Positions 42,788 to 64,000 of a DNA stretch of 64,000 nucleotides are shown here, one piece after another. How positions within the stretch are numbered: the first letter of the stretch is position 1; every line of letters begins with the position of its first letter. Both the position numbers and the translations under genes were made by a program. The notes under the pieces are model-generated. The model did no database searches and was not told where the DNA came from. It worked only from the letters and a program-made list of their open reading frames with translations. Source of the stretch: a virus (lineage: Duplodnaviria > Caudoviricetes); IMG/VR virus record IMGVR_UViG_3300032330_001078, positions 2,575 through 66,574 of that record. The stretch is one strand, 5' to 3'.

Positions 42788-42803
42788 GTTTCTCCTTAAA
42801 TAG

Positions 42804-42959: not shown

Positions 42960-42960
42960 G

Positions 42961-43155
42961 TTAATGTGAGTGGTAATTATTAACTAGCTCGTACCACGCG
43001 TCTTGTTCTGTCTTGGCAAGATCAACATGATCATTGTGTTCTTCGGTTTTTGATTTAACTGTATGCACAACAGTTATTGCAACAACCGTTACTGCGCCTA
43101 AAGCAAGAAACATTATCATGTATTTGACGTTATCATTCATAACTCTAAACCTCAA
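42961..43155 (-). CDS. Small membrane protein
   Basis: One transmembrane segment (YMIMFLALGAVTVVAITVV). Confidence 0.5.
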   Translation of the reverse strand: MRFRVMNDNVKYMIMFLALGAVTVVAITVVHTVKSKTEEHNDHVDLAKTEQDAWYELVNNYHSH

Positions 43156-43444: not shown

Positions 43445-43629
43445 TTAATTACTCCAATTTTTGTAAGGTAGGCAACGCAAAATTCAGTGAGCCTGTCTTC
43501 TGCGCTTTTCTTGTCGTTCTGAAGGATTGGTATCAAGTCTTTATGCTTTGCCAGCAGGATTGCTAGTTCAGCCTGAGATACCTTGGGTTTCTTGATTATC
43601 ACTCGGCACTCTCCGTACTTGCTGACCAT
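43441..43629 (-). CDS. Hypothetical protein
   Basis: Coupled small ORF in operon. Confidence 0.5.
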   Translation of the reverse strand: MVSKYGECRVIIKKPKVSQAELAILLAKHKDLIPILQNDKKSAEDRLTEFCVAYLTKIGVIK

Positions 43630-44123
43630 TCTTTAAGTTCAGCTTGTACGCATGACGAGCAAACATTGTTATTCATGTAGCGACTGTCTTCGTATGTCTC
43701 TTCGCACTCAACGCAAGTAGCTTCTTTTAGGATTACATCTTGCGTTAAGTTTCTGGTAGATACGCTGTCTTGAATAATGTTGTATTCATCTACCCACACT
43801 TGAATGTAAAACGGTTCCACATACCAGTTATTTTCACGAGCAATAGTTGCCCAGTGATTACGAGCTGCTTCAATGTCTTGACCAAACTTACTTGCTTCTA
43901 ACTTTATTTGGCCTTTGCAGTGTGGTGAATCCCAGTCGTTGTGGTACTGGCATTCGATGGTGTCTTCGCAAAACTTACATTGAGCAACCATTGCGTTTGG
44001 CTCACCACAGCAAACTAAACTGTTGTCGGTAATCCAAACATACTTGGTTTGGTCGATTGCCCATGCAGGCTTTTGGTCTTGCTGGTCTTCCATTATTTTT
44101 TCTAGAACGCCATGATCAGCCAT
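43599..44123 (-). CDS. Cys-rich hypothetical protein
   Basis: Several CxxC pairs; AAGGAG RBS. Confidence 0.6.
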   Translation of the reverse strand: MADHGVLEKIMEDQQDQKPAWAIDQTKYVWITDNSLVCCGEPNAMVAQCKFCEDTIECQYHNDWDSPHCKGQIKLEASKFGQDIEAARNHWATIARENNWYVEPFYIQVWVDEYNIIQDSVSTRNLTQDVILKEATCVECEETYEDSRYMNNNVCSSCVQAELKEWSASTESAE

Positions 44124-44490
44124 TGCGCTTCTCCTTCATGATGTGCAGTTGGGTGTCTAAATGTTTGATTGCTTCTTCTAACTGAACCATTAGTGCTTTG
44201 GCCTCGTTAAACTTTAGTGAAATCTGTGAGTAATTGACCTTAGCGTGGCCTTCCCACTTTTTGATTTCGATAGTGACAATGCCTTCAACAAGTCCGTCTG
44301 GCGTATAAACGGTTGAGCCGACTGCTTCTTTGAATTGCGTGCGTTCAGCCTCTTGCATAATGTCTAACTTGTTCTTATTCACTTTCGTGCCTTTCTCTAT
44401 GGAACATGCGATGCATGTCGCGTTGTCGTGAGGAAGTTTGTCGATGTGTAGCATCAAATCATCGAATGGATTCTTTTTTGGCGTGTACAT
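44116..44490 (-). CDS. Hypothetical protein
   Basis: AGGAGA RBS; CxxC. Confidence 0.6.
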   Translation of the reverse strand: MYTPKKNPFDDLMLHIDKLPHDNATCIACSIEKGTKVNKNKLDIMQEAERTQFKEAVGSTVYTPDGLVEGIVTIEIKKWEGHAKVNYSQISLKFNEAKALMVQLEEAIKHLDTQLHIMKEKRNG

Positions 44491-44504
44491 GTCTCTCCTA
44501 ATGT

Positions 44505-44535
44505 AAAAACCCCCTAAACCGTGTTGTCTAGGGGG
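44505..44535 (-). terminator. Intrinsic terminator-like hairpin directly upstream of an RBS
   Basis: - strand CCCCCTAGAC-AACACG-GTTTAGGGGG-TTTTT. Confidence 0.65.
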
Positions 44536-44547
44536 GTGTAGTGGGTG

Positions 44548-44856
44548 TTACGCTCTGCGTCCGCCACAGTTAGCGGCGCATGTATTGCGGTGGTAGTCAT
44601 AAGTGCAGTCTTCAACAACACCAGTGCGATATCGGCAGTTTGCTTTGCATTCGCCAAACTCGTGCTTTTGACATTCAAGCACTTCAGTTTCTTCCGGAGT
44701 AACTGCACAAATTTCGCAGTACTTTGAATCGTGCTCTTCGCCGCGCAAGTGCGCAAGTGTCATTTTTTCTTTACGCTGCTGAATGGCCAGTTCGGTCTTT
44801 TCAATAGCGTCTGTAACTTCTTCAAGAACCTTGAAGATTTTCTTGCCTATGCCCAT
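44548..44856 (-). CDS. Cys-rich hypothetical protein
   Basis: AGGAGA RBS; many Cys and His in C-terminal half. Confidence 0.55.
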   Translation of the reverse strand: MGIGKKIFKVLEEVTDAIEKTELAIQQRKEKMTLAHLRGEEHDSKYCEICAVTPEETEVLECQKHEFGECKANCRYRTGVVEDCTYDYHRNTCAANCGGRRA

Positions 44857-44865
44857 GATGATCTC

Positions 44866-45183
44866 CTAATCAATCTCTGCGCAGTTACCGCACCAAGTAT
44901 TTCTTGATGCTGTCTTGCATGTGCCGTGCTTGTGTATTGTGTCTTCGTGTTCAGGGCAATGGCAACAGTTGATGCAATAACCCTGATCTGAGTGACATGC
45001 CCATACTTCAACGCTTACGCGTTCACAGAATAGGCATTTCTTGTCGTTATTAACAGCGCCTTTAATGTCGCTCTTAATCTCTGCTAATTCTTGCTTTATC
45101 AAGTGATAAACAACAACTAGCATGACTGGTAGTAAAACAATACAAAATGCTCTTTGTATGTAGGTAGCTATTGTCCAGCCCAT
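44866..45183 (-). CDS. Membrane-anchored Cys-rich hypothetical protein
   Basis: N-terminal hydrophobic segment then CxxC clusters; GAGG RBS. Confidence 0.5.
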   Translation of the reverse strand: MGWTIATYIQRAFCIVLLPVMLVVVYHLIKQELAEIKSDIKGAVNNDKKCLFCERVSVEVWACHSDQGYCINCCHCPEHEDTIHKHGTCKTASRNTWCGNCAEID

Positions 45184-45468
45184 TTATTCACCTCTTACTT
45201 TGTGGTCGGAATCCTGATACTTTTCGTGTCGAGGATTTTCGAAGTATTCTGCAATTGAAATGTCTACCAATCCGCTAAGCGAGTGGATAACATCCATGTG
45301 ATTTGCCTTTGTCATGTCAAATACGTTGACGTATTTGATTGGTTCGTACTCCCAAGGAATGATGGTGATCGTAACTTCTTGATCGTAATCAATTTCGGCA
45401 GTTACTTTGTACAAACCTCTAAGTGGTTTGTACGTTACTTGAGTTTCGTAGGTTTCTTGATTTGTCAT
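45184..45468 (-). CDS. Hypothetical protein
   Basis: Likely start ATG 45468 (MTNQET) with AAGGAG RBS; track start at 45687 runs through promoter and terminator. Confidence 0.6.
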   Translation of the reverse strand: MTNQETYETQVTYKPLRGLYKVTAEIDYDQEVTITIIPWEYEPIKYVNVFDMTKANHMDVIHSLSGLVDISIAEYFENPRHEKYQDSDHKVRGE

Positions 45469-45478
45469 GATTTTCTCC

Positions 45479-45589
45479 TTATTTACCTGTTTTACGTAAT
45501 ACTTGCTTAATCCAATAGATAGGACTACCAAGTAATACGCGCAATGTAATAGCTGAAACAGCGATAACTGCGATTTGTGTGTGTGACAT
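45479..45589 (-). CDS. 36-aa hydrophobic/basic peptide (MSHTQIAVIAVSAITLRVLLGSPIYWIKQVLRKTGK)
   Basis: Not in ORF track; AGGAGA RBS; stop abuts the next RBS. Confidence 0.55.
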   Translation of the reverse strand: MSHTQIAVIAVSAITLRVLLGSPIYWIKQVLRKTGK

Positions 45590-45607
45590 GTTTTTCTCCT
45601 GTAATAG

Positions 45608-45644
45608 AAAAACCCACCAAACGGGGTGTTTAGTGGGTTATTTT
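45608..45644 (-). terminator. Intrinsic terminator-like hairpin directly upstream of an RBS
   Basis: - strand AACCCACTAAAC-ACCCC-GTTTGGTGGGTT-TTT. Confidence 0.6.
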
Positions 45645-45675
45645 CAGGCAGCACAATAACTGCTTGAATACTTCT

Positions 45676-45705
45676 ATTATAGCACACTTACACACCTATT
45701 TGCAA
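45676..45705 (-). promoter_or_regulatory. SigA-type promoter
   Basis: - strand TTGCAA-18 nt-TATAAT with extended TG; 20 of 21 nt around the -10 match the 42930 promoter. Confidence 0.7.
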
Positions 45706-45824
45706 CACATAGGAACAAAAAAAAAAGAGTAAATACCCATTAGGCTGTAAATACAGTAAAACTGGTCATTTACTGTAGTAAGGAGGGTGGTTTTCCGTGT
45801 TTCCCACCCTCCTTACGCTTTTAT

Positions 45825-46817
45825 TTACAGTTTAGACACAATACTTAGCGCCAAAGACTTACTTGGATCAACTCTTGTAAGGGTACGACCTACACGAGTA
45901 TCAAGGTTGTGTGCTGGCTGGAAATGGTCAACCATTTCAATAGCAGCCTGCAAAATGCCCCATTTAGTGCCTGCAATACCCTCGCATGTAGGACCTGTGT
46001 ACAGCTCAATGAACTGTGAACGCCTATTGCTCATGTTTCGACGCTGCAAGTCTGTCATGTTTGTTGAAAACGGAAGCCACTTGTCCATAAAATCCTCAAC
46101 TTCTGGTAGCCAAACTGGATATTTGGCAAAATTAGTTGCCATAACTTCCCAGTCTTTAAAAGCCCCAATGTTTGACGCAACTGCGATACGTGCCTGCTCA
46201 ATACGGTCAGCCCAGTTGTTTGTGTGGCGAATAGTAAACACAAAGCCGTGCTTGTCCATTTCTCGCTCAGCAATTGCTTGGGTGTTTGCGCAAACTACGC
46301 GAACTGCCGTTGGCCCTAGCTTCATTCCGCCCAATCCATCATGGCGTGAAACAAACACCATGTATGGGTATGTTTCTGATGGATCACCTGGCAAACTAAT
46401 TGGTTCGTCTAGGTACATGGTGGCAATGATTTGCTTACCGCCGTGAAGGCTAATGAGGGTTTCAAACTTGAGGTTTGATGTGCCTTGAATGTGACCATTC
46501 ATTACATAGTCAATAATGTTGCCAAACTCCCCGTTTCCAATGACTGCGTATGAGTCTTTTTGAATGGAAAGAATAGCCCCAGTGTCGTTGCGGGTAATGC
46601 GCTGCCAGCCGTCAATCTGCTGATAAGACCTGTTGTAGACCGGTTGACCTTCCGAATCTGTGTCTAGCGCATAGATTGGTGATGATTCAACATCCCAAGT
46701 GAGTCCTGCGAACTCTCGTGCTTGCTCAAATGTTCCTGGCCAGTCTGGCAGTACATTGCCTAACTGATGCCACGCCGGCTGGCGTACGAACATTCCTGAT
46801 TCAAAATGGTGTGCCAT
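45825..46817 (-). CDS. DUF932 family phage/plasmid protein
   Basis: Start ATG 46817: MAHHFES...PAWHQLG...LTWDV, FET..SL.GGK, YMVFVSRHDG, VRVVCANT, RHT. Confidence 0.9.
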   Translation of the reverse strand: MAHHFESGMFVRQPAWHQLGNVLPDWPGTFEQAREFAGLTWDVESSPIYALDTDSEGQPVYNRSYQQIDGWQRITRNDTGAILSIQKDSYAVIGNGEFGNIIDYVMNGHIQGTSNLKFETLISLHGGKQIIATMYLDEPISLPGDPSETYPYMVFVSRHDGLGGMKLGPTAVRVVCANTQAIAEREMDKHGFVFTIRHTNNWADRIEQARIAVASNIGAFKDWEVMATNFAKYPVWLPEVEDFMDKWLPFSTNMTDLQRRNMSNRRSQFIELYTGPTCEGIAGTKWGILQAAIEMVDHFQPAHNLDTRVGRTLTRVDPSKSLALSIVSKL

Positions 46818-46828
46818 TTTTATTCTCC

Positions 46829-47068
46829 TTAGAGATTGATTGTGTGTGTGTAGTTGAAGCCACAATTTTTAAGCAAATCGTTGGCATGTCTTTCGGCATC
46901 TGACCAAGCAGTTTCAGTGTCAAATATTCTTGACAAAATGATGTGCTTGCCCCAGCCAGTTTTGTTCTTTTGGATTACCCAGTATTTACCAGATACGCCT
47001 TGTGTTTCGTCGTAATCAACTTGAATGATTGAATCATCATTCTCCCTGATTGCTATTTGCTTTCTCAT
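46829..47068 (-). CDS. Hypothetical protein
   Basis: Likely start ATG 47068 (MRKQ). Confidence 0.5.
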   Translation of the reverse strand: MRKQIAIRENDDSIIQVDYDETQGVSGKYWVIQKNKTGWGKHIILSRIFDTETAWSDAERHANDLLKNCGFNYTHTINL

Positions 47069-47615
47069 CTTTAGCCTTTCCGTACCTTTGAGCAAAGGAT
47101 TCATAGTCTCTTAGCCGTTTTTGATGTTCTTTTTCTATTTCACTTTTAATGTGAATAGTTTTCCAGTGTCTAGCAGCTTCTAATCTTTTTTCGTCGCGAG
47201 TAGCAACTGATTTAATACCAGCATTAAGAACTAAATCTTCAATATCTAGTTCTTTGTCAAAGCATCCCATACGGCGAAAAAACTCATCAGTAAAAGATTG
47301 CACGTCACTAATTACATGCTTACCATCAAAATAAATGTCTCTAGCATGTCGATTCCAATAATGGTCTGAATTATCTTGCGTATTAACTACAATACGCACC
47401 ATTAATGGCGGGTCTTTTGCTAGCGGATCAGAATTTGACTCTCTAAAAACTTTTAATGTCCAAAGTTTTCTTTGTGCTCTGTGCGCATATGTTACTTGAT
47501 GATAACCAAAATGATACTCAACGCTAGGTATTGTTCGCGAGTCTGTTTTTGGGTCTTTTATTTCTCCAAAATAATTGGATTCATCAATTGCTTCTAGTAT
47601 TTCTTCCGGTGTCAT
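47037..47615 (-). CDS. Hypothetical protein
   Basis: 192-aa ORF in operon. Confidence 0.6.
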   Translation of the reverse strand: MTPEEILEAIDESNYFGEIKDPKTDSRTIPSVEYHFGYHQVTYAHRAQRKLWTLKVFRESNSDPLAKDPPLMVRIVVNTQDNSDHYWNRHARDIYFDGKHVISDVQSFTDEFFRRMGCFDKELDIEDLVLNAGIKSVATRDEKRLEAARHWKTIHIKSEIEKEHQKRLRDYESFAQRYGKAKDEKANSNQGE

Positions 47616-47949
47616 CTACATCCTTAGGAGTTTGATAACCTGCATATTCACCATCTGGCGTGAGAATAACTAACCAGTGGTGCGTAAGGTTTAGTGGTGT
47701 TGTTTTGGGGTCGGCCCAAGAGCGCACCATAAATCCGTCATCGTATGATTTTTGTGGATTTAAGTGAACGCTATTGGTGCCTAGGTTGTGACATTCATGG
47801 TGTAGAGCTACTACGTTGTCAAGGTCGTCTTTTCCGCCTTGTGAACGTAGTTTGCGGTGATGCGCCGCCCAGTTTTCAGACAACACACCACCGCAAAACT
47901 CACACATACCTTTACAGCGTTCATAAAGCGCTTTGCGGTTGATTGTCAC
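47584..47949 (-). CDS. HNH endonuclease
   Basis: CEFCG...AHHRKLRSQGG.DDLDNVVALHHECH. Confidence 0.9.
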   Translation of the reverse strand: MTINRKALYERCKGMCEFCGGVLSENWAAHHRKLRSQGGKDDLDNVVALHHECHNLGTNSVHLNPQKSYDDGFMVRSWADPKTTPLNLTHHWLVILTPDGEYAGYQTPKDVDDTGRNTRSN

Positions 47950-48290
47950 GTAACAAAGCCGCCTAGAGCCATTTCTGATCTAGTCATGGCTGATAGTGAC
48001 CTGGCTACGTCAATACGGGTTCTTACACCGTCTAGACGGGCTTTAGCGGCTCTTAGGACCTGCTTGGCTACTTCTGAGTCCCAGCGTTCTTGCTCGGACG
48101 CTAATAGCGCTACAGTCTCTTTGACTGCCACAGCCCCAGATGCTTCCATGAATGCCCTAGCGTACGCCAGTTTGTAGGTATGTTCTGTTTCTACAGCGTG
48201 TGCATCGGCCTCTACGAGGTCTTCTGTGGCTTGATCTAAATCTGCTGACAGCAAGCTAAGGTCTCTGGCTATGGAAATTAGGTCTGTCAT
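47946..48290 (-). CDS. Helical/coiled-coil hypothetical protein
   Basis: Ala-rich helical sequence; coupled start and stop. Confidence 0.6.
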   Translation of the reverse strand: MTDLISIARDLSLLSADLDQATEDLVEADAHAVETEHTYKLAYARAFMEASGAVAVKETVALLASEQERWDSEVAKQVLRAAKARLDGVRTRIDVARSLSAMTRSEMALGGFVT

Positions 48291-48571
48291 TTCCTTTTGC
48301 TCAATTCTTTTAATAGTTTGGCAATGATGTCAATCAGATCTTCAACAATTTCATCGTAAACACTCAAAGTTGGCTTGGCATCCTCTTTGTGTTCGCGCTT
48401 ACCTTCAAACCATTCATCGTAATGATCAATAGTTTTAGGCTTGTTATTCTTGTAGTTATTTTCAAATTGCTTGTCTGGATAACGGTTTTTATTAAAAAAC
48501 GGCACTTTGGGCTTGTCTTTATCGTTATCATCAGGTACATTTGGTGGTGGAGTCGTGTTGTTCTCGTCCAT
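48287..48571 (-). CDS. Hypothetical protein
   Basis: AAGGAG RBS. Confidence 0.55.
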   Translation of the reverse strand: MDENNTTPPPNVPDDNDKDKPKVPFFNKNRYPDKQFENNYKNNKPKTIDHYDEWFEGKREHKEDAKPTLSVYDEIVEDLIDIIAKLLKELSKRK

Positions 48572-48631
48572 TGCGGTTCTTTCTCCTTGTGTGTGTTGAG
48601 TGGAAGGCCCCCTAGTTTTCTAGGGGGTCTT

Positions 48632-48763
48632 TTACATTACTGCAGTTATCTTAATGTCTGAGCAGTGATTTTCCAATTCTTCTTCAACTCGTTCTGAAGC
48701 TGTTTCTGGATTTGGAGCATCTAGTGTTACTCGAACTATTGCTTCGACTTCGTATGTCGGCAT
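48632..48763 (-). CDS. Small hypothetical protein (MPTYEVEAIVRV...)
   Basis: ATG 48763 with AAGGAG RBS. Confidence 0.55.
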   Translation of the reverse strand: MPTYEVEAIVRVTLDAPNPETASERVEEELENHCSDIKITAVM

Positions 48764-48783
48764 GGTGTTTCTCCTTTCATTTC

Positions 48784-48811
48784 TTGACACGGCTTCCTCT
48801 CTGTGTATGCT
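48784..48811 (+). promoter_or_regulatory. Putative SigA promoter for the inverted + strand island
   Basis: TTGACA-16 nt-TATGCT upstream of the AAGGA RBS and ATG 48841. Confidence 0.5.
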
Positions 48812-48840
48812 AGTAGTACACACCGACAGAAAGGACTGAC

Positions 48841-49068
48841 ATGGCGCTCACACTTGACGCACCAACTGTAAAGAAAGAACGAATCTGTTCTTTACAAAAA
48901 CTCCGCAACAAACTTGAAGCAGAGGATCAATCCACACTTGATAGTTGGATTGAAAACAAAGTAACTCCTTACAAAGTATTTATGGCTTTGAAGAGGGAAG
49001 GTCATGCAATCGGCAGGCAAGTAGTCTATGAACACATGAACGGATGCTGTATCTGCGATGGCTCTTAA
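48841..49068 (+). CDS. Small protein with terminal Cys/His motif
   Basis: C near the N-terminus and H..GCC.C at the end; coupled to the phosphoesterase gene. Confidence 0.65.
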   Translation: MALTLDAPTVKKERICSLQKLRNKLEAEDQSTLDSWIENKVTPYKVFMALKREGHAIGRQVVYEHMNGCCICDGS

Positions 49069-50245
49069 AGATTTTGTTGACATGGGCCCTGGTAGTCCAG
49101 ATCCTAGAGGAAAGCACCCAAACATTCCTAAAGGCTGGGAGCCTCGCCTTGAATGCGATAACGCTACTGGCGGCTTTCTTGTCACCAAACCTCGCGAGGC
49201 GTCACAAAGCGACCCCAGCACTTTGGAAATCTTTGACCAGTTTGGGTTAAACCCAGATAACTGGAAGATTACTAACTTACGCCGCTCTACTTGGCAAAAC
49301 CATGCCGGTGAGTGGCTTGAGTCATATAGGGCTACTTTTGTTCCTCAAACAATGTATGGTGCTGTTCTTAAAGCAGATGCAGACGAACTTATTAAAATGG
49401 TTAAGTCACATAAGCCGGGAAAGAAGCCAGCGCCCACTGGTAACGCTAGCGGTATCTTTGCTGTTGGCGATACCCAAATCGGTAAAGTAGACGGCGGAGG
49501 CACTGAGCAGATACTGCAAAACACCCTCAGTCGTTTTGACATGTCCGTAGACAGGCTCAAGACTTGGCGCAAACTCGGCTACGAGATTGGTGAAGTTATC
49601 GCACCTTGGCTCGGCGACTGTATCGAGGGCAACCAGTCTCAACATGGAGACGCTGCTGCCGCTGGGCGTATCGACCTGACCATTACTGAACAGGTCCGTG
49701 TATTGCGCCGTCTGATGATGTATCAAATCAAGACTCTCGCTCCCCACGTTGAGCGTCTCATTGTCCCTATCGTTCCGGGCAATCACGATGAGGCTGAGAG
49801 GCGCGGAAGCATTGTCCGAAGCTACACTGATTCTTGGGCAATCGAAGCAGGATCTGCCGTTGCAGACGCATGCGCGGAGAACCCGGAGGCTTACGGACAT
49901 GTTTCTTTCCTTTTCCCTCATAAAGATGAGTTAACTATTACTTTAAAAACTAACGACACCATTATTGGTATGGCTCATGGCCACCAGTTTGGCAAAGACC
50001 CTGTTAAATGGTGGCAAGAACAGTCACACGGCAGGCAACCAGTAGGTGAAGCTCATATTCTACTAGGTGCTCATCTTCATCATCATAAAATGCAAGATTG
50101 TGGCAAAGATCGTGTGTTTATCCAAACCCCTGCGCTTGATGGTGGGTCCACTTGGTATCGCCACCGCCGAGGTGAAGTAAGTAAAGCTGGTCTGCTAACC
50201 TTTGTAGCATCCAACGGTACATGGCAGGAAATGAGCATTCTCTAA
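49058..50245 (+). CDS. Calcineurin-like metallophosphoesterase
   Basis: GDTQIGK, LGDCIEG, VPGNHDE, MAHGH, GAHLHH motifs. Confidence 0.85.
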   Translation: MALKDFVDMGPGSPDPRGKHPNIPKGWEPRLECDNATGGFLVTKPREASQSDPSTLEIFDQFGLNPDNWKITNLRRSTWQNHAGEWLESYRATFVPQTMYGAVLKADADELIKMVKSHKPGKKPAPTGNASGIFAVGDTQIGKVDGGGTEQILQNTLSRFDMSVDRLKTWRKLGYEIGEVIAPWLGDCIEGNQSQHGDAAAAGRIDLTITEQVRVLRRLMMYQIKTLAPHVERLIVPIVPGNHDEAERRGSIVRSYTDSWAIEAGSAVADACAENPEAYGHVSFLFPHKDELTITLKTNDTIIGMAHGHQFGKDPVKWWQEQSHGRQPVGEAHILLGAHLHHHKMQDCGKDRVFIQTPALDGGSTWYRHRRGEVSKAGLLTFVASNGTWQEMSIL

Positions 50246-50442
50246 TGAAACGGCAAATCGTCATCAAACTGTTTGGTGAAGAGATTGTTAATGTTCTCAT
50301 AGACGAAACTGAAGACGAAGCAGAGGAAACAGAAGAAGTTGAGTCTAATGGGTCTAATAGCATTGAAACGGCCATTTCAAGTTTAGGAACTATTGGCTTT
50401 GGCACGCCTTGGTCTGTTGAATACTGGGATAACGAAGATTAG
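50245..50442 (+). CDS. Small acidic hypothetical protein
   Basis: TAATG coupling at 50243-50247. Confidence 0.5.
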   Translation: MKRQIVIKLFGEEIVNVLIDETEDEAEETEEVESNGSNSIETAISSLGTIGFGTPWSVEYWDNED

Positions 50443-50937
50443 CTATTCGTCAGGGTTTTGCGAAACCATTCCTGTTGTGTCGGTTGATAAAATTTGTATA
50501 GCGTGCCAGTTAACTAACAAGCCAGATGCGACAGTAGTTTGGGTTGCTGACGCATTGTAAATGTAGATGTTAAAAGCACTGCTGTTTACTGTGTTAACTC
50601 TAGGCACTAAACTTGCTGACCCAGTTAAAATATTGCCAAAAGATACGGTAATAATTGGACCTGTTGAAAACTTTGAGTTAATTCCAAATGTGCTGGCAAA
50701 GTTTACGTTAATTGCTCCGCTATTGCCACCACCAGCAATTGTCATTGCTCCGCAAGTTATCTGACCAGCGGCAATAGTGTAGGGTAACGCGCCGGTTGCC
50801 ACCCACACACCATTTTTTAAAACTAACGTATCTCCGTCAGTTCCAGATGCACCAATGTCATTTAGTTGATAAATACTATGTGTGTGTCCTTCTGGGCCTG
50901 AGGCTGGAAGGATGCGCCCTCGGTTGCTAAAACTCAT
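50443..50937 (-). CDS. Tail-fibre-like protein with H-type-lectin/gp53-like C-terminal domain
   Basis: HTHSIYQLNDI..GDTLV...W fibre motif; VNF...F...PIITVS...VNTVNSSAFNI...VNWHAI. Confidence 0.6.
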   Translation of the reverse strand: MSFSNRGRILPASGPEGHTHSIYQLNDIGASGTDGDTLVLKNGVWVATGALPYTIAAGQITCGAMTIAGGGNSGAINVNFASTFGINSKFSTGPIITVSFGNILTGSASLVPRVNTVNSSAFNIYIYNASATQTTVASGLLVNWHAIQILSTDTTGMVSQNPDE

Positions 50938-51434
50938 TACAGTTCCTCGTGATCAATCATTGGTAATTCAGATACTCGCTTAAGCGCTGCAACATATTCT
51001 TCAGATGTTCCTGCTACAACAATAGTGTTATTAGTAACAGTGCTTGAAGGAATAGTTTCCAATCCAAGGACTTTGGCTCTTGCTTGAATAATTTTTAGTG
51101 CTGTTTCAATTGCTTGACGGTCACCACCAATAGCATCATTCCAAATTGCTTGCTGGAGAGTATCCAAGCGATCTACTTCCATGGCTAACATAGTGCGCTT
51201 AGTTCCTTCATCTACAAGTTTGGCAGCTTCTTTAATGCGGTTGTGCACAAGCATTCCTGCTTGTTGTTCACTAATTTTAAGATCTTCTGCAATTTGCCAC
51301 CAAGAAGCGCCCGCTTTGCGCATTTGAAATGCTTTCATGGCTAAAGCATTTTGCTCTTCCTGCAGTACAGCAGCGCTATTGGCTTTTTTAACACGCGCAA
51401 CGCTTTTGCTTGGTGTTTTCTTTGCTGCGGTCAT
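50937..51434 (-). CDS. terS: Putative terminase small subunit (HTH)
   Basis: AFQMRKAGASWWQIAEDL, EVDRLDTLQ..IW..A..GD..AI...LKIIQARAKVLGLE, typical actinophage TerS/HTH pattern. Confidence 0.65.
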   Translation of the reverse strand: MTAAKKTPSKSVARVKKANSAAVLQEEQNALAMKAFQMRKAGASWWQIAEDLKISEQQAGMLVHNRIKEAAKLVDEGTKRTMLAMEVDRLDTLQQAIWNDAIGGDRQAIETALKIIQARAKVLGLETIPSSTVTNNTIVVAGTSEEYVAALKRVSELPMIDHEEL

Positions 51435-51739
51435 TTCTTTCTCTTTCTAGGCGACACAAACTTTTTATCATCATAGTCATTCATAGCGCCTTTAAAGTTT
51501 CCTTTGTTGCGGGCTATGGCTGCTCTTCGTTCAAAACTTGTAAATCCACCCCATACACCAAACTCTTCTTTGCTTTTTAGTGCAGTAATTAAGCAATCTC
51601 TTCGTACATCACATTGATTACAAATTGTTTTTGCTGTTTTTATTTCTTGTGAAGTCATTGGTAATTCATTTTTACCGTAGAACAGTTCGGATGGCATTCC
51701 GTTGCAGTATGCGTCGTCACGCCAATCTCTGCGAGCCAT
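51431..51739 (-). CDS. whiB: WhiB family transcription factor
   Basis: Start ATG 51739: WRDDAYC..ELFY..AKTICNQCDVRRDCL..A..EEFGVWGG.T..ERR. Confidence 0.92.
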   Translation of the reverse strand: MARRDWRDDAYCNGMPSELFYGKNELPMTSQEIKTAKTICNQCDVRRDCLITALKSKEEFGVWGGFTSFERRAAIARNKGNFKGAMNDYDDKKFVSPRKRKK

Positions 51740-52184
51740 ATATTGCCAGGCAGGTGGCGTCGATTGCGTCTTGAGGTTTTTTGAGATGCTGGCAGGCGTC
51801 ATAGTAATTAGGATGCTTGGAGGCGAGCCATCTTGCGACGGCATCTTTATCCGAGTGTCCATTACCAATTACCGCCTTTTTCCATGATGAAGGTCCTATA
51901 AATATTACTTCTGAGTCTACTCTTTGAGCGGCTACTGCTAAAGCACCAGCCACCATTCCCATGGATATGCCTGTACGAATGTTGCGGCTAGCGCCCTGAA
52001 TTGCCTGCTCAATAACAGTCAACTCAGGGCACGTAGCCCACATTTGGTCTGTCAACCAATCAGACAGGACTACAAGGTTTTTGACATCATCTTTACTGGT
52101 CAAAATGAGTTCTTCAAAAACCATGTGACTAGGGTGTGAGTACGCAATGCGCCTTACGCCATAGTCAACTCCTGCTGAATCCAT
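51717..52184 (-). CDS. ruvC: RuvC-like Holliday junction resolvase
   Basis: GVDYG.RRIA, VIEQ, IGPSSWKKAVIGNG..DK, QDAIDA..LA. Confidence 0.85.
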   Translation of the reverse strand: MDSAGVDYGVRRIAYSHPSHMVFEELILTSKDDVKNLVVLSDWLTDQMWATCPELTVIEQAIQGASRNIRTGISMGMVAGALAVAAQRVDSEVIFIGPSSWKKAVIGNGHSDKDAVARWLASKHPNYYDACQHLKKPQDAIDATCLAIYGSQRLA

Positions 52185-52193
52185 ACCTTATTT

Positions 52194-52271
52194 CTACCAG
52201 TTACCGCGATCAATGTACAATACGACGCCCAGCAGTAAAGCTAGAACAATTCCCAAGAATACGTTAAACAC
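52194..52271 (-). CDS. 25-aa transmembrane peptide (MFNVFLGIVLALLLGVVLYIDRGNW)
   Basis: Not in track; GTG start with GGAG RBS; fills the gap between genes. Confidence 0.5.
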   Translation of the reverse strand: MFNVFLGIVLALLLGVVLYIDRGNW

Positions 52272-52470
52272 GTTTTTCTCCGTCTACTGGTGGTCCCCAC
52301 GAAGTCCATGCTTGTGGTCGCCAGGCGACTCGGCAAATCTTATTGTCAAATACAGTGATTAATAGTTCGCCACCCTCAGGCGACGGAATACTATCTTGAT
52401 CATCTAAATTGACGACAAAGGTTGACATTACTTCTTGGTTAATCATCTTGATCATCCTCTCGTCCAGCAT
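52264..52470 (-). CDS. Hypothetical protein
   Basis: GGAGG RBS before ATG 52470; ATG 52446 is an alternative start. Confidence 0.5.
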   Translation of the reverse strand: MLDERMIKMINQEVMSTFVVNLDDQDSIPSPEGGELLITVFDNKICRVAWRPQAWTSWGPPVDGEKRV

Positions 52471-52585
52471 CTTCGTTATCCTCCCGTGCTTCTGCTGAGC
52501 ATTCCCAGCAGTTGATGATACTAGCAACACCGCCATGCCTACGGCAATTTGCGTACTGTTCGTCAGTTAATTCAATGTTTGTCAT
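52439..52585 (-). CDS. 48-aa Cys/His-containing acidic peptide
   Basis: Not in track; MTNIELTDEQYANCRRHGGVASIINCWECSAEARED...; starts just after the upstream stop. Confidence 0.45.
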   Translation of the reverse strand: MTNIELTDEQYANCRRHGGVASIINCWECSAEAREDNEDAGREDDQDD

Positions 52586-52590
52586 TGATG

Positions 52591-52935
52591 TCAAGCTTTC
52601 AACAAATCGCAAAGTTTTTGAATTTGCAATTCAGTAAGGCCTAAAGTTTCGCCTTTTTCATCTGCTTCACCGGTAAACACAACATTTCCTAGAATTGAAT
52701 CAAACATTTTGTATTCTTTTTGAAACAAAAAAGTAGCAAAAACGTTTTGCGGTAAATTAATTATTTTGCCGTATTCATTTAGCCACATGTCTACACCGAG
52801 CGACTTTAATTGCACTCGCTCAATGTTTCCGTCAACTGCATCGTGCAATACGATGTGTGCATCATCTGCAGTAAATGTCTTAATTTCTGCATTCATGTCA
52901 GTAGTAATAACTAGCGCTTCTCTAACGTTGGTCAC
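52591..52935 (-). CDS. DUF3846 family protein
   Basis: LHDAVDGNIERV..MWLNEYGK..LPQN..AT..ILGNVVFTG..G.T.GLT. Confidence 0.75.
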   Translation of the reverse strand: MTNVREALVITTDMNAEIKTFTADDAHIVLHDAVDGNIERVQLKSLGVDMWLNEYGKIINLPQNVFATFLFQKEYKMFDSILGNVVFTGEADEKGETLGLTELQIQKLCDLLKA

Positions 52936-53237
52936 GATTTTCTCTCTTTCTGAGATGTTTGTTGGTTGTTATTTATTTCTTCGTCTAACAATTTAATTGT
53001 TGGACAAGGGTATAGCCAAGATCCGTCTACTTCATTCCCACAATGGGAGCAAAGCTGCAGGTCCTCTTGGTATGGGTGTGGGACTGGCTTGTGCAGTTCC
53101 CTTATTGGTGCGGTTACCAAATCAATCATTCTTTGATACACCATGTAGTGCGGCATGTTTGAGGCGCATGATATTGCTACCATGCACCCCTTGCCGTGAA
53201 CATGCTTTCCGGCTGTCTTAATCATTGGGAAGACCAA
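52932..53237 (-). CDS. Hypothetical protein with LH.P...CxxC...YPC.T module
   Basis: ELHKPVP...CSHC...YPCPTIKLL. Confidence 0.65.
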   Translation of the reverse strand: MVFPMIKTAGKHVHGKGCMVAISCASNMPHYMVYQRMIDLVTAPIRELHKPVPHPYQEDLQLCSHCGNEVDGSWLYPCPTIKLLDEEINNNQQTSQKERKS

Positions 53238-53638
53238 TCATTAAGAGTTTTAATAGTTGTACAGGGCCACGTCTCGTCATCGACCAAACAATAATCTGCA
53301 TCATCTAAAGCAGGTTGAGCTCTATGCAAATGTCTAACTTGCCTAATTTGGTCAGACATTTCTCGGTTAAGAGAAGCGTATGGCTGAATGGTATCAAACA
53401 AATCAAGCGCTTCGCCCATGGTGTATTTCATTTCGTTCATTCTTGATCTCAAGTGAGCCAAGTAAACAATTGAATCGTCTATCTCTTCAATGGTTTCTCG
53501 AATAATTTCAGAAGGTTTTTTAAGTTCAATTTTTTGAACATTTCCTTCGTCATACTGATCAGCACCAACACCTAAAATTCTGGTGCGTAAACTGGCAATG
53601 ATTGCTTCAATCTGGTCAGCTAAATCATTCGCTTTCAT
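53222..53638 (-). CDS. All-alpha NTP-pyrophosphatase-like (MazG-superfamily-like) domain plus Cys/His module
   Basis: G..QYD.G..Q..E...E.IEEIDD.IVY; C-terminal LH...C...WPCTTIKTL. Confidence 0.45.
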   Translation of the reverse strand: MKANDLADQIEAIIASLRTRILGVGADQYDEGNVQKIELKKPSEIIRETIEEIDDSIVYLAHLRSRMNEMKYTMGEALDLFDTIQPYASLNREMSDQIRQVRHLHRAQPALDDADYCLVDDETWPCTTIKTLNDWSSQ

Positions 53639-59713: not shown

Positions 59714-61012
59714 TTATCCTAACTGCGACGCATCGCTTTCATCGTCTTCTACTTTCATTTCCGTGGCTCTGCTGATACTTAAATCACCTAGCAAACCGCG
59801 TCCTGGCTCAAATTGGGTAAACCATTTTGCTCCAGACTCACCGTGGCGGTATTTCGTCAATGAGTTGACTAGTACACGCTTTGAGTGTTGCTTGAGAGTG
59901 ATTACTGCATCAGCATCCTGACCTAACGCATCAGATTGTGCAAGATGCTCGGTTCCTGGACTTCTATCAGAGTTACCGCCTGCACGGTTGATTTGTGCAG
60001 CGGCAATGATTGGTACGTTTCGGCTGAGTGCTACTTCTTTAACTTGGTTAGAGATGGTAGCCATTGCACGCCAGTCTTCGATTGCTCGTGATCCTGACGT
60101 TGTGTGCATTAATCCGATGTAGTCAATAATTACTAGTGTTTTTTCGTTTGCGATGGCTGATAGTACTGATGCATCACATCTTCCCTTTGTGGGGTCGTAA
60201 ACACTAATTGTTCCTGAGTCTTGCGCCCATTCTTCGAGCATTTCCGAGCGTCTATCTAAATCTAGATTTGCCCATGGCTCTCGCCATTGTTTTAGTGCTA
60301 CTCGGTGTATGCGGTCTAAGACTGACTTGGCTGGCATTTCAAGGCTAAAGAACGCTACGTCCCATCCGCCTTCTGCGGCTGATACGGCATGTTGTATTAA
60401 TCGCCATGATTTACCAATACCTAGTCTGGCTGCAATTATCCACATGTCACCTGAGGCTATTCCGCCGGTGGTTGAATGTAGCATTCCTTGCGGTACAGGA
60501 CACATTTCTAATTCGCCTATGTCTTCAAGCAGCGTAAGATCTGTGGCATCTACGCCCATTCCTACTGCTGGTTGAATTCGAGATAATCCGTCTTGAAGGA
60601 TACCAATTGCTTCATCGTTTGCATCTTCTGCTAGCGATGCTGAAGCTCTAGACATTGTTTGCCTAAGTACACGGTTAGTGTGTGCTTCAGATAGTACAGA
60701 TGCCGCCCAAACTGGGTTTGCTTCGGCAATGTATGGAAACTGTGGGTATTTTTCTTTCAAGATGTGGATTGGCGGAGCACCATGCGATACCTCTTGGTAT
60801 TTCATGCAAAACTCATGAATTGGCTTATGGCCAATTATTTGTTCTGATCTAACCCCATAAATGCCTGGAATGTAGATTCCTGTATCTATTAGGGCTGAGA
60901 TGAATTGTGCTTCTGGTGAATGGTCTGCTGATGAGCCATAATTTATCTGAGTGCTTCGGTCATTTACTAGATGAGCATAGGCATCCTTTTCTACTTTGTT
61001 GAATCTGCCCAC
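59714..61012 (-). CDS. dnaB: DnaB-like replicative helicase
   Basis: AARLGIGKS, FFSLEM, VIIDYIGL, PII.AAQINR, SDALGQDAD; likely start GTG 61012 with GGAG RBS. Confidence 0.92.
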   Translation of the reverse strand: MGRFNKVEKDAYAHLVNDRSTQINYGSSADHSPEAQFISALIDTGIYIPGIYGVRSEQIIGHKPIHEFCMKYQEVSHGAPPIHILKEKYPQFPYIAEANPVWAASVLSEAHTNRVLRQTMSRASASLAEDANDEAIGILQDGLSRIQPAVGMGVDATDLTLLEDIGELEMCPVPQGMLHSTTGGIASGDMWIIAARLGIGKSWRLIQHAVSAAEGGWDVAFFSLEMPAKSVLDRIHRVALKQWREPWANLDLDRRSEMLEEWAQDSGTISVYDPTKGRCDASVLSAIANEKTLVIIDYIGLMHTTSGSRAIEDWRAMATISNQVKEVALSRNVPIIAAAQINRAGGNSDRSPGTEHLAQSDALGQDADAVITLKQHSKRVLVNSLTKYRHGESGAKWFTQFEPGRGLLGDLSISRATEMKVEDDESDASQLG

Positions 61013-61158
61013 TAAAGGGTCTCCATTTCTGTGTGTGTAACGCCAAAAAGCTCTCAAGCGTTAGAGTCGGATTACCGATACTAGTACCTGAGAGCTTATT
61101 TAGGGAAGTCTTTTACTGACTGTAAGAAGGCATACTGCCCCCTCCCCTTGTGAGAGCA

Positions 61159-61167
61159 ATTATAGCA
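61159..61167 (-). promoter_or_regulatory. Extended -10 promoter element for the replication operon
   Basis: - strand TGCTATAAT, same element as the 42930 and 45676 promoters; no clear -35. Confidence 0.5.
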
Positions 61168-61477
61168 GATAAAAGTTAACAGAAACACCACATAAGAACT
61201 GAACACAAGGCATATTAGATAACAATTTCGTTATCAAAAGCAAAACACTGTGTTTACTGACCCCCAATGGTTTTGCAATTAGGTGACGTGTGATAAAATA
61301 AAGCGTCTAGCTGCTTGCTGATAGACAAACCTCAACAAATAACAATTCAGCAGATCAAGAGTTAATCTTAATCAACTGAAAGCGCGACAGCAAAGACGAG
61401 GAATTGCTGGCTAAGAGTTAATCAAAGCCTTGCAGGCAGCGGGAGACGTATATTTAGCAGGAAAATACAAGAATTCC

Positions 61478-61557
61478 GTTATATCTTTATATACAGATAT
61501 ACAGATATTCATATTCAGTTATATCTGTATTATGTATATATAGATATATACAGATAT
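61478..61557. repeat. AT-rich direct and inverted repeat cluster (candidate replication origin)
   Basis: ATACAGATAT at 61491, 61499 and 61548, inverted at 61521; GTTATATCT at 61478 and 61518. Confidence 0.6.
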
Positions 61558-61568
61558 AGGAGATATTC

Positions 61569-62015
61569 ATGGCTTGGCCACTTAAGAAAACACGTAAGGT
61601 CACATGTCCCTACGGGACTAAAGGTACTCAGTGGATGTCAGGTTGGCACCAAGGAGTAGATATTGGTGCTCCAGTTGGTGATCCAGTTTTTGCTGCAGCT
61701 GATGGAGTAGTTATCGGTGTAGGTATCTGGGGCAAGAGCTTTGGTAAATACTCACCGGTTATCAAGCATGGAAAGCATTACACAATTTATGCACATGTTG
61801 CTAAGTCTCTTGTTAAAGAAGGTGACAAAGTAAAGCTTGGTCAGCACATTGCTGATGTTGGCATTGAAGGTAACAGCGGTGGTCCGCATCTTCATTTTGA
61901 AACCCAGTACAGCCCTAACTGGACTGTTGGTGGTTCGCATGATCCTAAATGGCTTCTTGCTTACAAGGGTCGTCATCCACTAAAGCGTCTTATTGCTGCA
62001 GTCAAGAGTAAGTAA
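61569..62015 (+). CDS. M23 family peptidase (putative endolysin)
   Basis: HQGVDIG...G.PVFAAADG, YAH, G.SGGPHLHFE; AGGAG RBS. Confidence 0.9.
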   Translation: MAWPLKKTRKVTCPYGTKGTQWMSGWHQGVDIGAPVGDPVFAAADGVVIGVGIWGKSFGKYSPVIKHGKHYTIYAHVAKSLVKEGDKVKLGQHIADVGIEGNSGGPHLHFETQYSPNWTVGGSHDPKWLLAYKGRHPLKRLIAAVKSK

Positions 62016-62116
62016 TGAAAGTCATTGCTTGGATAGCTGTTGCATGGGCCGCAGTGTCTTTGTTTTTGTTGTTAGATACGTTGTACTGGATGAAAACTGG
62101 CCATAACTTTTGGTAA
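62015..62116 (+). CDS. 33-aa transmembrane peptide (MKVIAWIAVAWAAVSLFLLLDTLYWMKTGHNFW)
   Basis: Not in track; TAATG coupling to the lysin stop. Confidence 0.5.
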   Translation: MKVIAWIAVAWAAVSLFLLLDTLYWMKTGHNFW

Positions 62117-62162
62117 TGTTTTCTTAGTGTGGGTTGCCTAGGATAAGCCTTCACTAACCTGC

Positions 62163-62216
62163 AAGACCCCTGTTGCGGTGCTCGATTTTAAACCTTTGAG
62201 CCCGGACAGGGGTTTT
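62163..62216 (+). terminator. Terminator-like hairpin after the lysin operon
   Basis: AAGACCCCTGT ... ACAGGGGTTTT outer stem, T-rich tail. Confidence 0.5.
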
Positions 62217-62390
62217 GTGCTTTTAGTAGCGTAGACCCTGTGAAATTAGTAGCGTAACTTGGAAAGTAACAAGTAAGTGTTACTATTGAAGCATAAACAC
62301 CCAGTCCTCTGTTAATTCATGGCTGGGTTTTGTTATATTTGTTGCGTTGAAATGTAACAAACGTTACTTAAATGTTGCAATGTAATGCAA

Positions 62391-62470
62391 GGGGCAGGAA
62401 GGTTTCGACTAGACATTAAGACCACATGTTGGTAGTGTCTAGGACCAGAGTTCAATTCTCTGCTGCTCCA
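62391..62470 (+). ncRNA. Minimal tmRNA-like RNA (tRNA-like domain only, no mRNA-like domain)
   Basis: Acceptor GGGGCAG/CTGCTCC with G3.U70 and A73; unpaired D-region GAAGGTTTCGAC; GGAC then T-arm CAGAG-TTCAATT-CTCTG; only a 32-nt hairpin in between. Confidence 0.8.
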
Positions 62471-62498
62471 CAAGGAGCCCGACCGTAAGGAAACACAC

Positions 62499-62990
62499 GT
62501 GGTAAAAGCAAATTCACTACCAGTCATTGAAAAAGACCAGCAGCTAACAATTGAGTATTACGAACAAGATTTGTTAGACGTTGATAAAGAATATCCTCCA
62601 AGCAAAGTTAAAGAAATGCTTCACGCAAACATGGTCGTCAAAGTTAGTATTGGCGATGAAAGCAAGTATCAATTAGAAGGATACGAATTATTTAAAGTAG
62701 ATGATTGGGGCGGCTTAACTTTTGTAGGCAAGCTTGTAGAAGCCATTCAGTCAGTCAGATTTAATCATGCTGCGTCTATTCATGAAGACATTTGTTTGGA
62801 ATGCAAAGATGTTTGGCCTTGTAAAACAATTCAAGACATAGAACTTGTTTTTGATCAAGGTTTTTGGCAAGAAGGTTATCAAGAACCAACTTCAGTCGTT
62901 ACTGAAGAAATTGACTATCACGATTATCATGCAAAAATTGCAGATACTCAGAAAGAATACAAAGCTCGTTTTGGTAGTTTGTATTCTTAG
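62499..62990 (+). CDS. Hypothetical protein with H..CxxC..WPC.T module
   Basis: GTG start with AAGGA RBS; FNHAASIHEDICLECKDVWPCKTI. Confidence 0.65.
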   Translation: MVKANSLPVIEKDQQLTIEYYEQDLLDVDKEYPPSKVKEMLHANMVVKVSIGDESKYQLEGYELFKVDDWGGLTFVGKLVEAIQSVRFNHAASIHEDICLECKDVWPCKTIQDIELVFDQGFWQEGYQEPTSVVTEEIDYHDYHAKIADTQKEYKARFGSLYS

Positions 62991-62999
62991 TAAGGCTCA

Positions 63000-63073
63000 G
63001 CAGTCAAAGTGTTACGGTAGCACATCGGTCTCCAAAACCGATAGCCTAGGTTCGACTCCTAGTGACTGTGCCA
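63000..63073 (+). tRNA. trnW: tRNA-Trp (CCA)
   Basis: Acceptor GCAGTCA/TGACTGT, D-arm GTG/CAC, anticodon arm TCGGT-CTCCAAA-ACCGA, T-arm CTAGG-TTCGACT-CCTAG, G73, encoded CCA. Confidence 0.93.
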
Positions 63074-63110
63074 ATGTAGTATTGACTGACCACCAATAGT
63101 AGGAGCACGA

Positions 63111-64000
63111 ATGTCAAATGCGCCAGCGTTCAGTCTTACTCGTCCTCCCACAAATAAAGAAGAGTTATGGTGGACTGTCAAGACTCTTTGGGGTGTTGAA
63201 TTACCTAGAGTGCAGGTGTGTCCAGATCACACAGCACCTTTTGATGCATTTGCGGAGGCTTATTTTGGTAACGACTATAACTGGGTTCTTTGGTATGGTT
63301 CGCGTGGCACTGGCAAAAGCTACATGCTTGCTCTTCTGGCACTTACTAAAGCGGCTCTTCTAGAAATCAATGTAACTCTTCTTGGCGGGTCTATGGCTCA
63401 GTCGCAGAACATTCAAGAGCACGTTGAGTCTTTGACACAGTTTCGTAATGCGCCTGTACACGCTATTGAAAGCATCATCAAGACACAGATTACGTTTACT
63501 GGTGGTAACTGGATTAGACCACTTCCGGCATCCCAAAAGACTGTTCGTGGTCCTCACCCACAAATGACTTTGCTGGATGAGATTGACGAAATGGAACGTA
63601 AGATCTATGACGCTGCAATGGGTCAGGCTATGACTAAGCCCAACGTACGTGGTGTAGAGGTAGCTGAAATGGTTGTCGCTTCAAGTACGTGGCAGAACCC
63701 TGTTGGTACATTTCAGTCTGTCATGGATGAGGCTTTGGCTAAAGGTATGCCTATTCGTACATGGTGTTATAGAGAGCAGTTGCGTCCTAATGGCTGGATG
63801 GACCCTGATTTTATTGAGCGTAAAAGAATGTCTGTTCCGGCTGAAATGTTCCGTGTTGAGTACGAGTTAGGCGAGCCTGCTGGTGGTTCGCGTGCGTTTG
63901 ATTTGGACAAGCTTAATAGAGCATTTGTTGACATTCCAATTATTGATGAAAGGCAGGCGGGTAATGATGAGGAATGGGTTTTTGAGCATCCTATGCCTGG
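63111..64000 (+). CDS. terL: Terminase large subunit, 3'-truncated by the window end
   Basis: Not in track because it has no stop; AGGAG RBS; WYGSRGTGKS (Walker A), VRGPHPQMTLLDEIDEM (Walker B), VVASSTW. Confidence 0.9.
   Translation, partial: MSNAPAFSLTRPPTNKEELWWTVKTLWGVELPRVQVCPDHTAPFDAFAEAYFGNDYNWVLWYGSRGTGKSYMLALLALTKAALLEINVTLLGGSMAQSQNIQEHVESLTQFRNAPVHAIESIIKTQITFTGGNWIRPLPASQKTVRGPHPQMTLLDEIDEMERKIYDAAMGQAMTKPNVRGVEVAEMVVASSTWQNPVGTFQSVMDEALAKGMPIRTWCYREQLRPNGWMDPDFIERKRMSVPAEMFRVEYELGEPAGGSRAFDLDKLNRAFVDIPIIDERQAGNDEEWVFEHPMP

Follow-up and report, generated by a model that had tools for sequence, protein, structure and literature searches.

The window analysed here, a stretch of 64,000 nt, covers bases 2575-66574 of a 66,574-bp phage record in IMG/VR, rated as 90% complete by CheckV. 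The portal, the major capsid protein, and the tape-measure protein are encoded on the plus strand, while a replication block on the minus strand carries genes for a DnaB-like helicase, a primase, a DnaE-like Pol III alpha subunit, and a Cas4-type exonuclease. At only 34-41% identity, the nearest relatives of its DnaE-like polymerase and capsid protein in cultured phages come from very different hosts. Nine sizeable ORFs of the early/replication region (39856-53638, minus strand) have no Pfam or PHROG match, nor do several large plus-strand ORFs, for example the 1180-aa one at 5320-8862. The phage is an unclassified, siphovirus-like one of 66 kb, and it is largely uncharted. No tyrosine integrase (PF00589), resolvase (PF00239), SmpB, RF-1/ArfB, or Pth was found in the whole 66.6-kb record.

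Toward the right end of the window, the order is lysin, two hairpins, two boxes, a short RNA element that we call the mini-tmRNA, a 163-aa ORF, tRNA-Trp, and the large terminase (Table 1). Comparing this region and the element alone with 50,697 phage records by blastn yielded tRNA-Trp matches only, or none. An ORF of 33 codons for a hydrophobic peptide (MKVIAWIAVAWAAVSLFLLL...) lies at 62015-62116, its start codon overlapping the stop codon of the M23-peptidase gene in a TAATG; it is below the size cut of the ORF lists and may encode a small lysis or membrane partner. The first terminator-like hairpin comes from a terminator scan, and the second was recognized by reading, as CCCAG...CTGGG followed by TTTTGTT. 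The two boxes are 33 nt apart, the second adjoining G1 of the mini-tmRNA. Their motif has no other close matches in the window, and equivalent boxes precede G1 in three relatives (L031, L064, and L035). No recognizable sigma-70 promoter was found by scanning upstream of the mini-tmRNA. As the motif is present only before the mini-tmRNA, where the scan shows no sigma-70 promoter, we rejected it as a general promoter of the phage; the boxes look instead like a candidate operator or a specialized promoter element. Neither PHROG nor Pfam holds a match to the 163-aa ORF, and a search of IMG/VR with it found nothing. Since it belongs to no known family and is absent from the relatives, it is variable cargo rather than a conserved partner. 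The tRNA-Trp gene is 530 nt downstream of the mini-tmRNA.

Table 1. Features at and around the mini-tmRNA (window positions)
Feature	Position	Strand	Basis or remark
M23-peptidase lysin	61569-62015		
Two terminator-like hairpins with T runs, closing the upstream lysis genes	62190-62225, 62300-62334	+	
Two near-palindromic boxes, TGTTGC-N5-AATGCAA	62340-62357 (one mismatch), 62373-62390 (exact)	+	
Mini-tmRNA body, G1 to discriminator A73, 80 nt	62391..62470	+	RF00023, model R1, fold, conservation in relatives
Acceptor stem 5' strand GGGGCAG, with G3	62391..62397	+	Pairs with 62463-62469
Stemless D-loop region GAAGGTTTCGAC, tmRNA signature GGnUUCGAC	62398..62409	+	Rfam tmRNA consensus alignment
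32-nt hairpin in place of the whole message domain	62410..62441	+	Sequence, fold, covariation
P2a, TAGACATT/AGTGTCTA, 8 bp	62410-62417 with 62434-62441	+	
3-nt bulge AAG	62418-62420	+	
P2b, ACCA/TGGT, loop CATGT	62421-62424 with 62430-62433	+	
GGAC junction	62442-62445	+	
T-arm CAGAG-TTCAATT-CTCTG	62446-62462	+	Sequence, Rfam alignment
Acceptor stem 3' strand CTGCTCC, U70 at 62467	62463..62469	+	Sequence, fold
Discriminator A73	62470	+	
3' trailer CAA; CCA not encoded	62471..62473	+	
163-aa ORF, start 26 nt past the RNA	62499..62990	+	No family match
tRNA-Trp, CCA anticodon, 3' CCA encoded	63000..63073	+	ARAGORN; Rfam tRNA, 59.5 bits
Terminase large subunit (TerL), N-terminal part, runs off the record end	63111..63998	+	PHROG 2/9/7579

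The initial annotation had read both ends of a tmRNA gene here, and the parts that it listed (acceptor pairing, G3.U70, A73, D-loop, GGAC, T-arm, 32-nt hairpin, and CAA end) are all present at 62391-62473 on the plus strand. The acceptor stem is completely paired, G3.U70 included. The same segment matches the Rfam tmRNA model RF00023 over positions 1-374, with a score of 60.4 bits (E 3.7e-21) that exceeds the gathering score of 47; 292 of these 374 positions are deleted in the match. A covariance model built from relatives of the element (R1, see below) gives 92.9 bits. The minimum free energy and centroid folds agree on the same four helices (z = -2.75), and the strict signature pattern has one match in the window against 0.00 in 100 shuffles. 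The mini-tmRNA is single-copy in the phage record, and a permissive Rfam scan of 61000-64000 found nothing credible beyond the known matches. ARAGORN calls only the tRNA-Trp at 63000-63073 in the window and passes over the mini-tmRNA.

Within the Rfam tRNA clan, of which only the best member is kept for each hit, the tmRNA model is the best for the element; where the mt-tmRNA model of mitochondrial tag-less forms is concerned, RF00023 is likewise the member kept. A canonical tRNA-Ala was rejected because the tmRNA model is the best in the clan, and because the fold has no anticodon arm and ARAGORN makes no tRNA call. In two-piece tmRNA genes, the 3' acceptor piece comes first, followed by a coding piece with the 5' acceptor strand. 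A permuted tmRNA of this kind was also rejected, the element being one 80-nt unit in the standard order, from 5' strand to 3' strand.

What is missing is the message. Neither the sequence nor the Rfam alignment contains a resume codon, a tag frame, or a stop codon inside the mini-tmRNA, and the sole ATG-led frame starts in the hairpin loop, crosses the T-arm, and exits past the RNA 3' end. Pseudoknots PK1-PK4 are absent, with no sequence left to form them. The hairpin's P2a, 3-nt A-rich bulge, and C-G, C-G stub have their counterparts in the Rfam consensus, namely P2a, the GAa loop, and P2b, and a 5-nt loop stands where tmRNA has its pseudoknots and tag message. The absence of pseudoknots, resume codon, and tag ORF claimed at the outset is therefore borne out, both by the 292 missing RF00023 positions and by the lack of any contained frame. 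In structural terms, P2 is oriented away from the decoding center. A zero-length tag, in which U27 and the A-rich bulge would supply a UAA as both resume and stop codon, was considered and rejected: the aligned counterpart of the bulge in ordinary tmRNAs is the GAa internal loop that separates P2a from P2b, the stop triplet is missing in many relatives, and P2 does not face the decoding center. The mini-tmRNA retains all of the universal features of the tmRNA tRNA-like domain (TLD), together with P2a, a P2b stub of 4 bp, and the A-rich internal loop between them.

Close relatives occur as five loci on four records from different samples, two of the loci (L031 and L053) sharing one record. Their TerL is 91-95% identical to that of the window phage, the mini-tmRNA is kept upstream of it, and the RNA itself is 89-99% identical, with an insert of 31-32 nt and the same architecture. 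An inner stem pair shows compensatory change, being A:U in this phage, G:C in L031, and C:G in L038. Outside of the RNA, the flanking sequences are unalignable: conservation sets in precisely at G1 and does not extend past C74, the only conserved position of the 3' trailer. Between the RNA and TerL lies a variable cassette. It is occupied by the 163-aa ORF in this phage; by only a tRNA-Trp in L035, where this gene comes 2 nt after the mini-tmRNA; by an ORF resembling His-Me/HNH homing endonucleases in L038 (8984-9448, sub-threshold match); and, in L031, L064, and L053, by an ORF that occupies a corresponding position and can be aligned, of which the L053 copy (8294-8623) has no Pfam match. The record shared by L031 and L053 (IMGVR_UViG_3300027749_000047, G018) is 135,953 bp long and is rated 100% complete. 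It carries two diverged mini-tmRNAs at a distance of 67,151 bp, with a TerL gene after each, and probably arose when a pair of related genomes, each about 67 kb long, was joined in assembly.

Such relatives bear directly on whether a full-length tmRNA gene could simply have been collapsed by misassembly or local deletion. This can happen elsewhere: in an Achromobacter MAG, the only tmRNA-model match is an 80-nt element (L134/G005, C175:3823-3902; 91 bits), and a full-length gene is missing, as if the host ssrA had been collapsed or deleted in the assembly. That scenario is inapplicable to the window, where five close-relative loci from different samples share the same 31-32-nt insert and where more than 100 distinct sequences, each on an independent contig, are built in the same way. 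The chance that the element is an artefact is practically negligible.

The breadth of the family was assessed with a pattern combining the universal TLD features with an insert of 15-45 nt. At least 120 IMG/VR loci match it, against only 22 loci in 185,579 species genomes (one genome each, 596 Gb), most of the latter being MAG contigs from many phyla. Among the matches listed, there are 111 distinct sequences of 63-89 nt, and CCA is encoded in 45 of these 111. Covariance model R1 (alignment A2) was built from 34 of the 111 and recovers 100 elements plus one weak second match of 28 bits. It has no match in KPP23, RDJL Phi 1, RHph_Y60, ValentiniPuff, or Ottawa, five cultured phages whose capsid proteins are about 40% identical to that of the window phage, and no stand-in that can be cultured came to light. 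In the R1 alignment, 94.0% of the cells are paired, versus 63.4% after shuffling and 44-51% when the partners are slid, and both sides change in 19 of the 24 pairs. A sequence-only MAFFT alignment behaves like it (93.4% paired versus 70.1%). Five pairs never vary (G1:C72, G2:C71, G3.U70, G4:C69, and one T-stem G-C), all of them fixed by the search pattern. The patterns likewise impose GGGG/CTCC, TTCGAC, GGAC, and the T-loop, so the invariance of these signature parts is not independent evidence. Elsewhere the helices vary freely: acceptor pairs 5-7 covary across the family, with all four Watson-Crick types at pairs 5 and 6, and so do all eight P2a pairs and four of the five T-stem pairs. The two inner C-G pairs of P2b are nearly invariant (79/82 and 72/75). 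In alignment A3, near-invariance of the A-rich bulge and these C-G pairs is seen in columns 41-48 and 85-88 (window 62418-62433), and the family's hairpin loop is commonly CAUG or CACG. A bulge and P2b stub this constant, next to a P2a that covaries freely, suggest a sequence-specific contact.

By this pattern of covariation, the mini-tmRNA is a real, selected RNA gene belonging to a large phage family. The Rfam match, the element's own covariance model, the covariation, and the equally short insert of over 100 independent homologues jointly identify it as a phage-encoded TLD in which a short hairpin replaces the message domain. This is also how the initial annotation had understood it, and its expectation that related contigs would share covarying stems and a short insert proved correct, a normal-length insert not being seen in any homologue.

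The family also settles the case of a non-functional remnant, whether left by an ssrA-targeting element as its attP or as a scar of integration, or the decayed form of a full-length phage tmRNA. The idea has some precedent, as integration into ssrA is common and the 3' end of this gene can be carried by phages (PMC4131195, PMC9004378). In the mini-tmRNA, however, both TLD halves are present and paired, the 5' half covaries, and the fold is under selection. We surveyed 38 other carrier records of at least 20 kb each, 16 of which are at least 90% complete: just six have an integrase, and none has a full-length tmRNA, the above-threshold tmRNA-model matches being the 78-92-nt elements themselves. 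With no tyrosine integrase or resolvase in the 66.6-kb record, an attP for an integrase outside of the window, which had been left open initially, is not what the element represents. The artefact, deletion, pseudogene, and attP readings all fall because of the family, its covariation, and the boundaries of conservation in the relatives; a remnant deserves hardly any credence.

Since G3.U70 was part of the search pattern, its conservation was reassessed by a rescan that starts from TTCGAC and leaves the whole 5' strand, position 70, and position 73 unconstrained. In this rescan, all 116 distinct matches with a paired acceptor stem have G3.U70, and all 116 have A73. A wobble pair that stays invariant in an otherwise freely covarying helix points to selection for recognition by alanyl-tRNA synthetase (AlaRS). 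Charging with alanine thus appears to be under selection, and the claim that the RNA can be alanylated holds as far as it can be read from sequence. The invariance of G3.U70 is the sole argument in this analysis for the charged form.

This invariance is also what separates the reading favored below from that of a passive sponge, an RNA that would merely titrate host SmpB, neither being charged nor entering the ribosome, and whose alanine identity would be inherited baggage. Under such a reading, G3.U70 could readily drift to G:C, yet it and A73 are kept in 116 of 116 sequences while the adjacent pairs vary freely. SmpB contacts the elbow and the P2a region of the molecule. Pair 3:70 is outside of that contact. 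No examined carrier encodes SmpB (0 of 38 other records), which would make host SmpB a limiting, shared ligand, and a similar TLD-only molecule inhibited tmRNA whether it could be charged or not, according to the account of Mao et al. (2009) in PMC4131195. The sponge is ranked second, explaining as it does the published inhibition and not the invariance of G3.U70, and we regard it as rather unlikely.

At 32 of 143 loci, tRNA genes lie within 3 kb of the mini-tmRNA, often at a distance of 0-10 nt; they are always on the same strand and never on the opposite one. This proximity on a single strand implies tRNA-type processing. Clustering the neighboring genes of the same 143 loci showed no protein family that accompanies the RNA across lineages. 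With SmpB absent from the carriers, the mini-tmRNA is predicted to depend on host factors.

Phage tRNA arrays are thought to counter tRNA-targeting defenses. The frequent location of the mini-tmRNA in such arrays would thus fit a decoy or ligand acting outside of ribosome rescue, directed for instance at an RNase such as RNase R, at a tRNA- or tmRNA-directed defense nuclease, or at a defense protein with an SmpB-like domain (CoCoNuT type), or serving as a non-ribosomal alanine donor. SmpB-like domains do occur in predicted RNA-targeting defense systems (PMC11090510), and tRNA/tmRNA fragments participate in an anti-CRISPR complex (PMC11662646). Against this, there is no conserved neighbor protein across lineages, and the sequence points to no target beyond the standard TLD ligands. 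The decoy is pure conjecture, and we consider it quite improbable.

Three genomes or MAGs (Streptomyces, Mycobacterium, and Sinomicrobium) contain both a full-length tmRNA and a mini-tmRNA. At every variable stem position the two are different, which shows that the minis have not been copied recently from the host gene. Nor is CCA encoded by the full-length genes of these hosts, which end in CTCCA-CAA (Streptomyces, Mycobacterium) or CTCCA-CTA; the CAA end of the window element is thus ordinary for hosts that add CCA. In three relatives (L006, L029, and L063), ARAGORN reports a 'tmRNA' of 320-340 nt with 'Tag not identified'. We rejected these calls as spurious, the true 3' end of a mini being joined to a poor 5' half upstream. 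Phage tmRNA counts based on ARAGORN may therefore contain mis-extended minis. Because ARAGORN misses or mis-extends these RNAs, and because Rfam labels them simply 'tmRNA', current annotations hide their inability to tag.

Bacteria rely mainly on trans-translation for ribosome rescue and quality control, and this pathway is a drug target. The reading that we favor, and consider rather probable, is that 62391-62470 is a functional TLD-only tmRNA of the kind found in phage DS6A (see below), which uncouples or blocks the tagging linked to rescue. The RNA would be transcribed as the first part of the packaging/late gene block or together with it. Host RNase P would trim its 5' end and host nucleases its 3' end, which would then be completed by the CCA-adding enzyme. 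Host AlaRS would charge it with alanine through G3.U70 and A73, and it would bind to EF-Tu and to host SmpB, since the phage encodes none. The RNA would thereby rival host tmRNA in binding SmpB and in occupying the empty A-site of stalled ribosomes. As there is no message, an accepted nascent chain would gain a single alanine and no ssrA degradation tag, after which host release or hydrolysis factors would resolve the complex. The net effect during infection would be that ribosome rescue is uncoupled from protein tagging, or that tagging is blocked. What the phage gains from this is conjecture. The initial annotation had proposed SmpB sequestration or tag-less rescue, either of which may serve to counter ribosome-stalling or RNA-cleaving defenses.

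A more specific version, in which the charged form is the active one, is possible and we put it forward tentatively: Ala-mini-tmRNA, SmpB, and EF-Tu would perform a tag-less trans-translation at stalled ribosomes, followed by ArfB/Pth-type resolution. If this were true, a large and widespread group of phages would run its own tag-less trans-translation, in which ribosomes keep recycling and phage proteins are spared ssrA-directed proteolysis. This would be useful when nonstop complexes accumulate, for example through RNA-cleaving defenses or through mRNA decay that the phage induces. On this view, the nearly constant A-rich bulge and C-G, C-G stub of P2b would form a module for docking on the ribosome or on SmpB, and this module would define the minimal working unit.

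Taken as a family, these phages probably interfere with the host's ribosome rescue and protein tagging. A compact natural RNA that engages or disables trans-translation would add a new layer to host takeover, and an 80-nt competitor of tmRNA would double as a ready-made tool. The published phage record consists of one example, DS6A, treated in two sentences. The same design is now seen in more than 100 independent viral contigs from many host phyla, mostly in phages without an integrase and often in tRNA arrays. The literature thus understates how wide and how constrained the family is, and the invariant alanine pair argues that selection may see the charged RNA and not just an SmpB sponge.

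The nearest known system is that of DS6A, listed as 'Mycobacterium phage DS6A (TLD only)' by Hudson, Lau and Williams (2014; PMC4131195), with tmID 11587 on the tmRNA Website. A 2025 database paper repeats the statement and adds plastid forms without a CDS (PMC11915505). The novelty implied by the initial annotation was consequently overstated: phage tmRNAs are not always several hundred nucleotides long with a tag ORF, and both the TLD-only tmRNA of DS6A and the idea of SmpB titration were already in print (PMC4131195, PMC11915505). Model R1, although built from relatives of the window element, matches DS6A at JN698994 28478-28560 with 61.8 bits (E 1e-13). The DS6A element (L156:979-1061, the same segment) is unannotated in the GenBank record, where it lies between gp33 and a DNA polymerase III gene; the window phage also has a DnaE-like polymerase. 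Both elements are phage-borne and about 80 nt long, with a complete acceptor stem, D-loop, and T-arm, G3.U70 and A73, nothing but a P2 hairpin in between, and no tag frame. The features of the DS6A type (a complete TLD, a short capped P2 stem, a total of about 65-90 nt, and no tag frame) are thus all found in the window element. DS6A has the inner AAAACC-GCACG-CGG module, which is common across the family. The two also differ: DS6A is a temperate actinophage of another lineage and host, whereas the window phage has no integrase; DS6A has GGTGGTCGAC and GGCAC where the window element has GGTTTCGAC and GGAC; and there is no blastn-level similarity between the elements. Our literature search found no paper that describes a wide distribution of TLD-only tmRNA among phages.

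Engineered TLD fragments of bacterial tmRNA likewise consist of a TLD and a capped P2 stem, and they indicate what such a molecule can do. As reported in the papers that cite these studies, a TLD-only-like molecule, chargeable or not, strongly inhibits tmRNA in Escherichia coli (Mao et al., 2009, in PMC4131195 and PMC11915505), possibly through titration of SmpB (Mao et al., 2009, in PMC4131195); peptidyl transfer to a TLD-only tmRNA is EF-Tu-dependent (Shimizu and Ueda, 2006, cited in PMC3895274); and a truncated tmRNA was crystallized with SmpB and EF-Tu on the 70S ribosome (Neubauer et al., 2012, cited in PMC8363625). These fragments are laboratory truncations of host tmRNA, whereas the mini-tmRNA is a natural gene that evolves independently and retains the A-rich loop and the P2b stub.

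Full-length tmRNA (SsrA, RF00023) has a homologous TLD, to which the mini-tmRNA is related above the gathering threshold, but the mini-tmRNA lacks the resume codon, tag frame, stop, and pseudoknots, and it cannot add a degradation tag. Phages can also carry full-length tmRNAs, examples being mycobacteriophage Bxz1 and Bacillus phage G. The organellar tmRNAs without a CDS, found in jakobid mitochondria and in the plastids of Mallomonadaceae (PMC11915505), are closer in design: they are tag-less, about 65-80 nt long, and TLD-only, with SmpB as their presumed partner. Each of them is the sole tmRNA of its compartment, in contrast to the mini-tmRNA, which is an accessory viral gene beside a complete host tmRNA and presumably acts against it.
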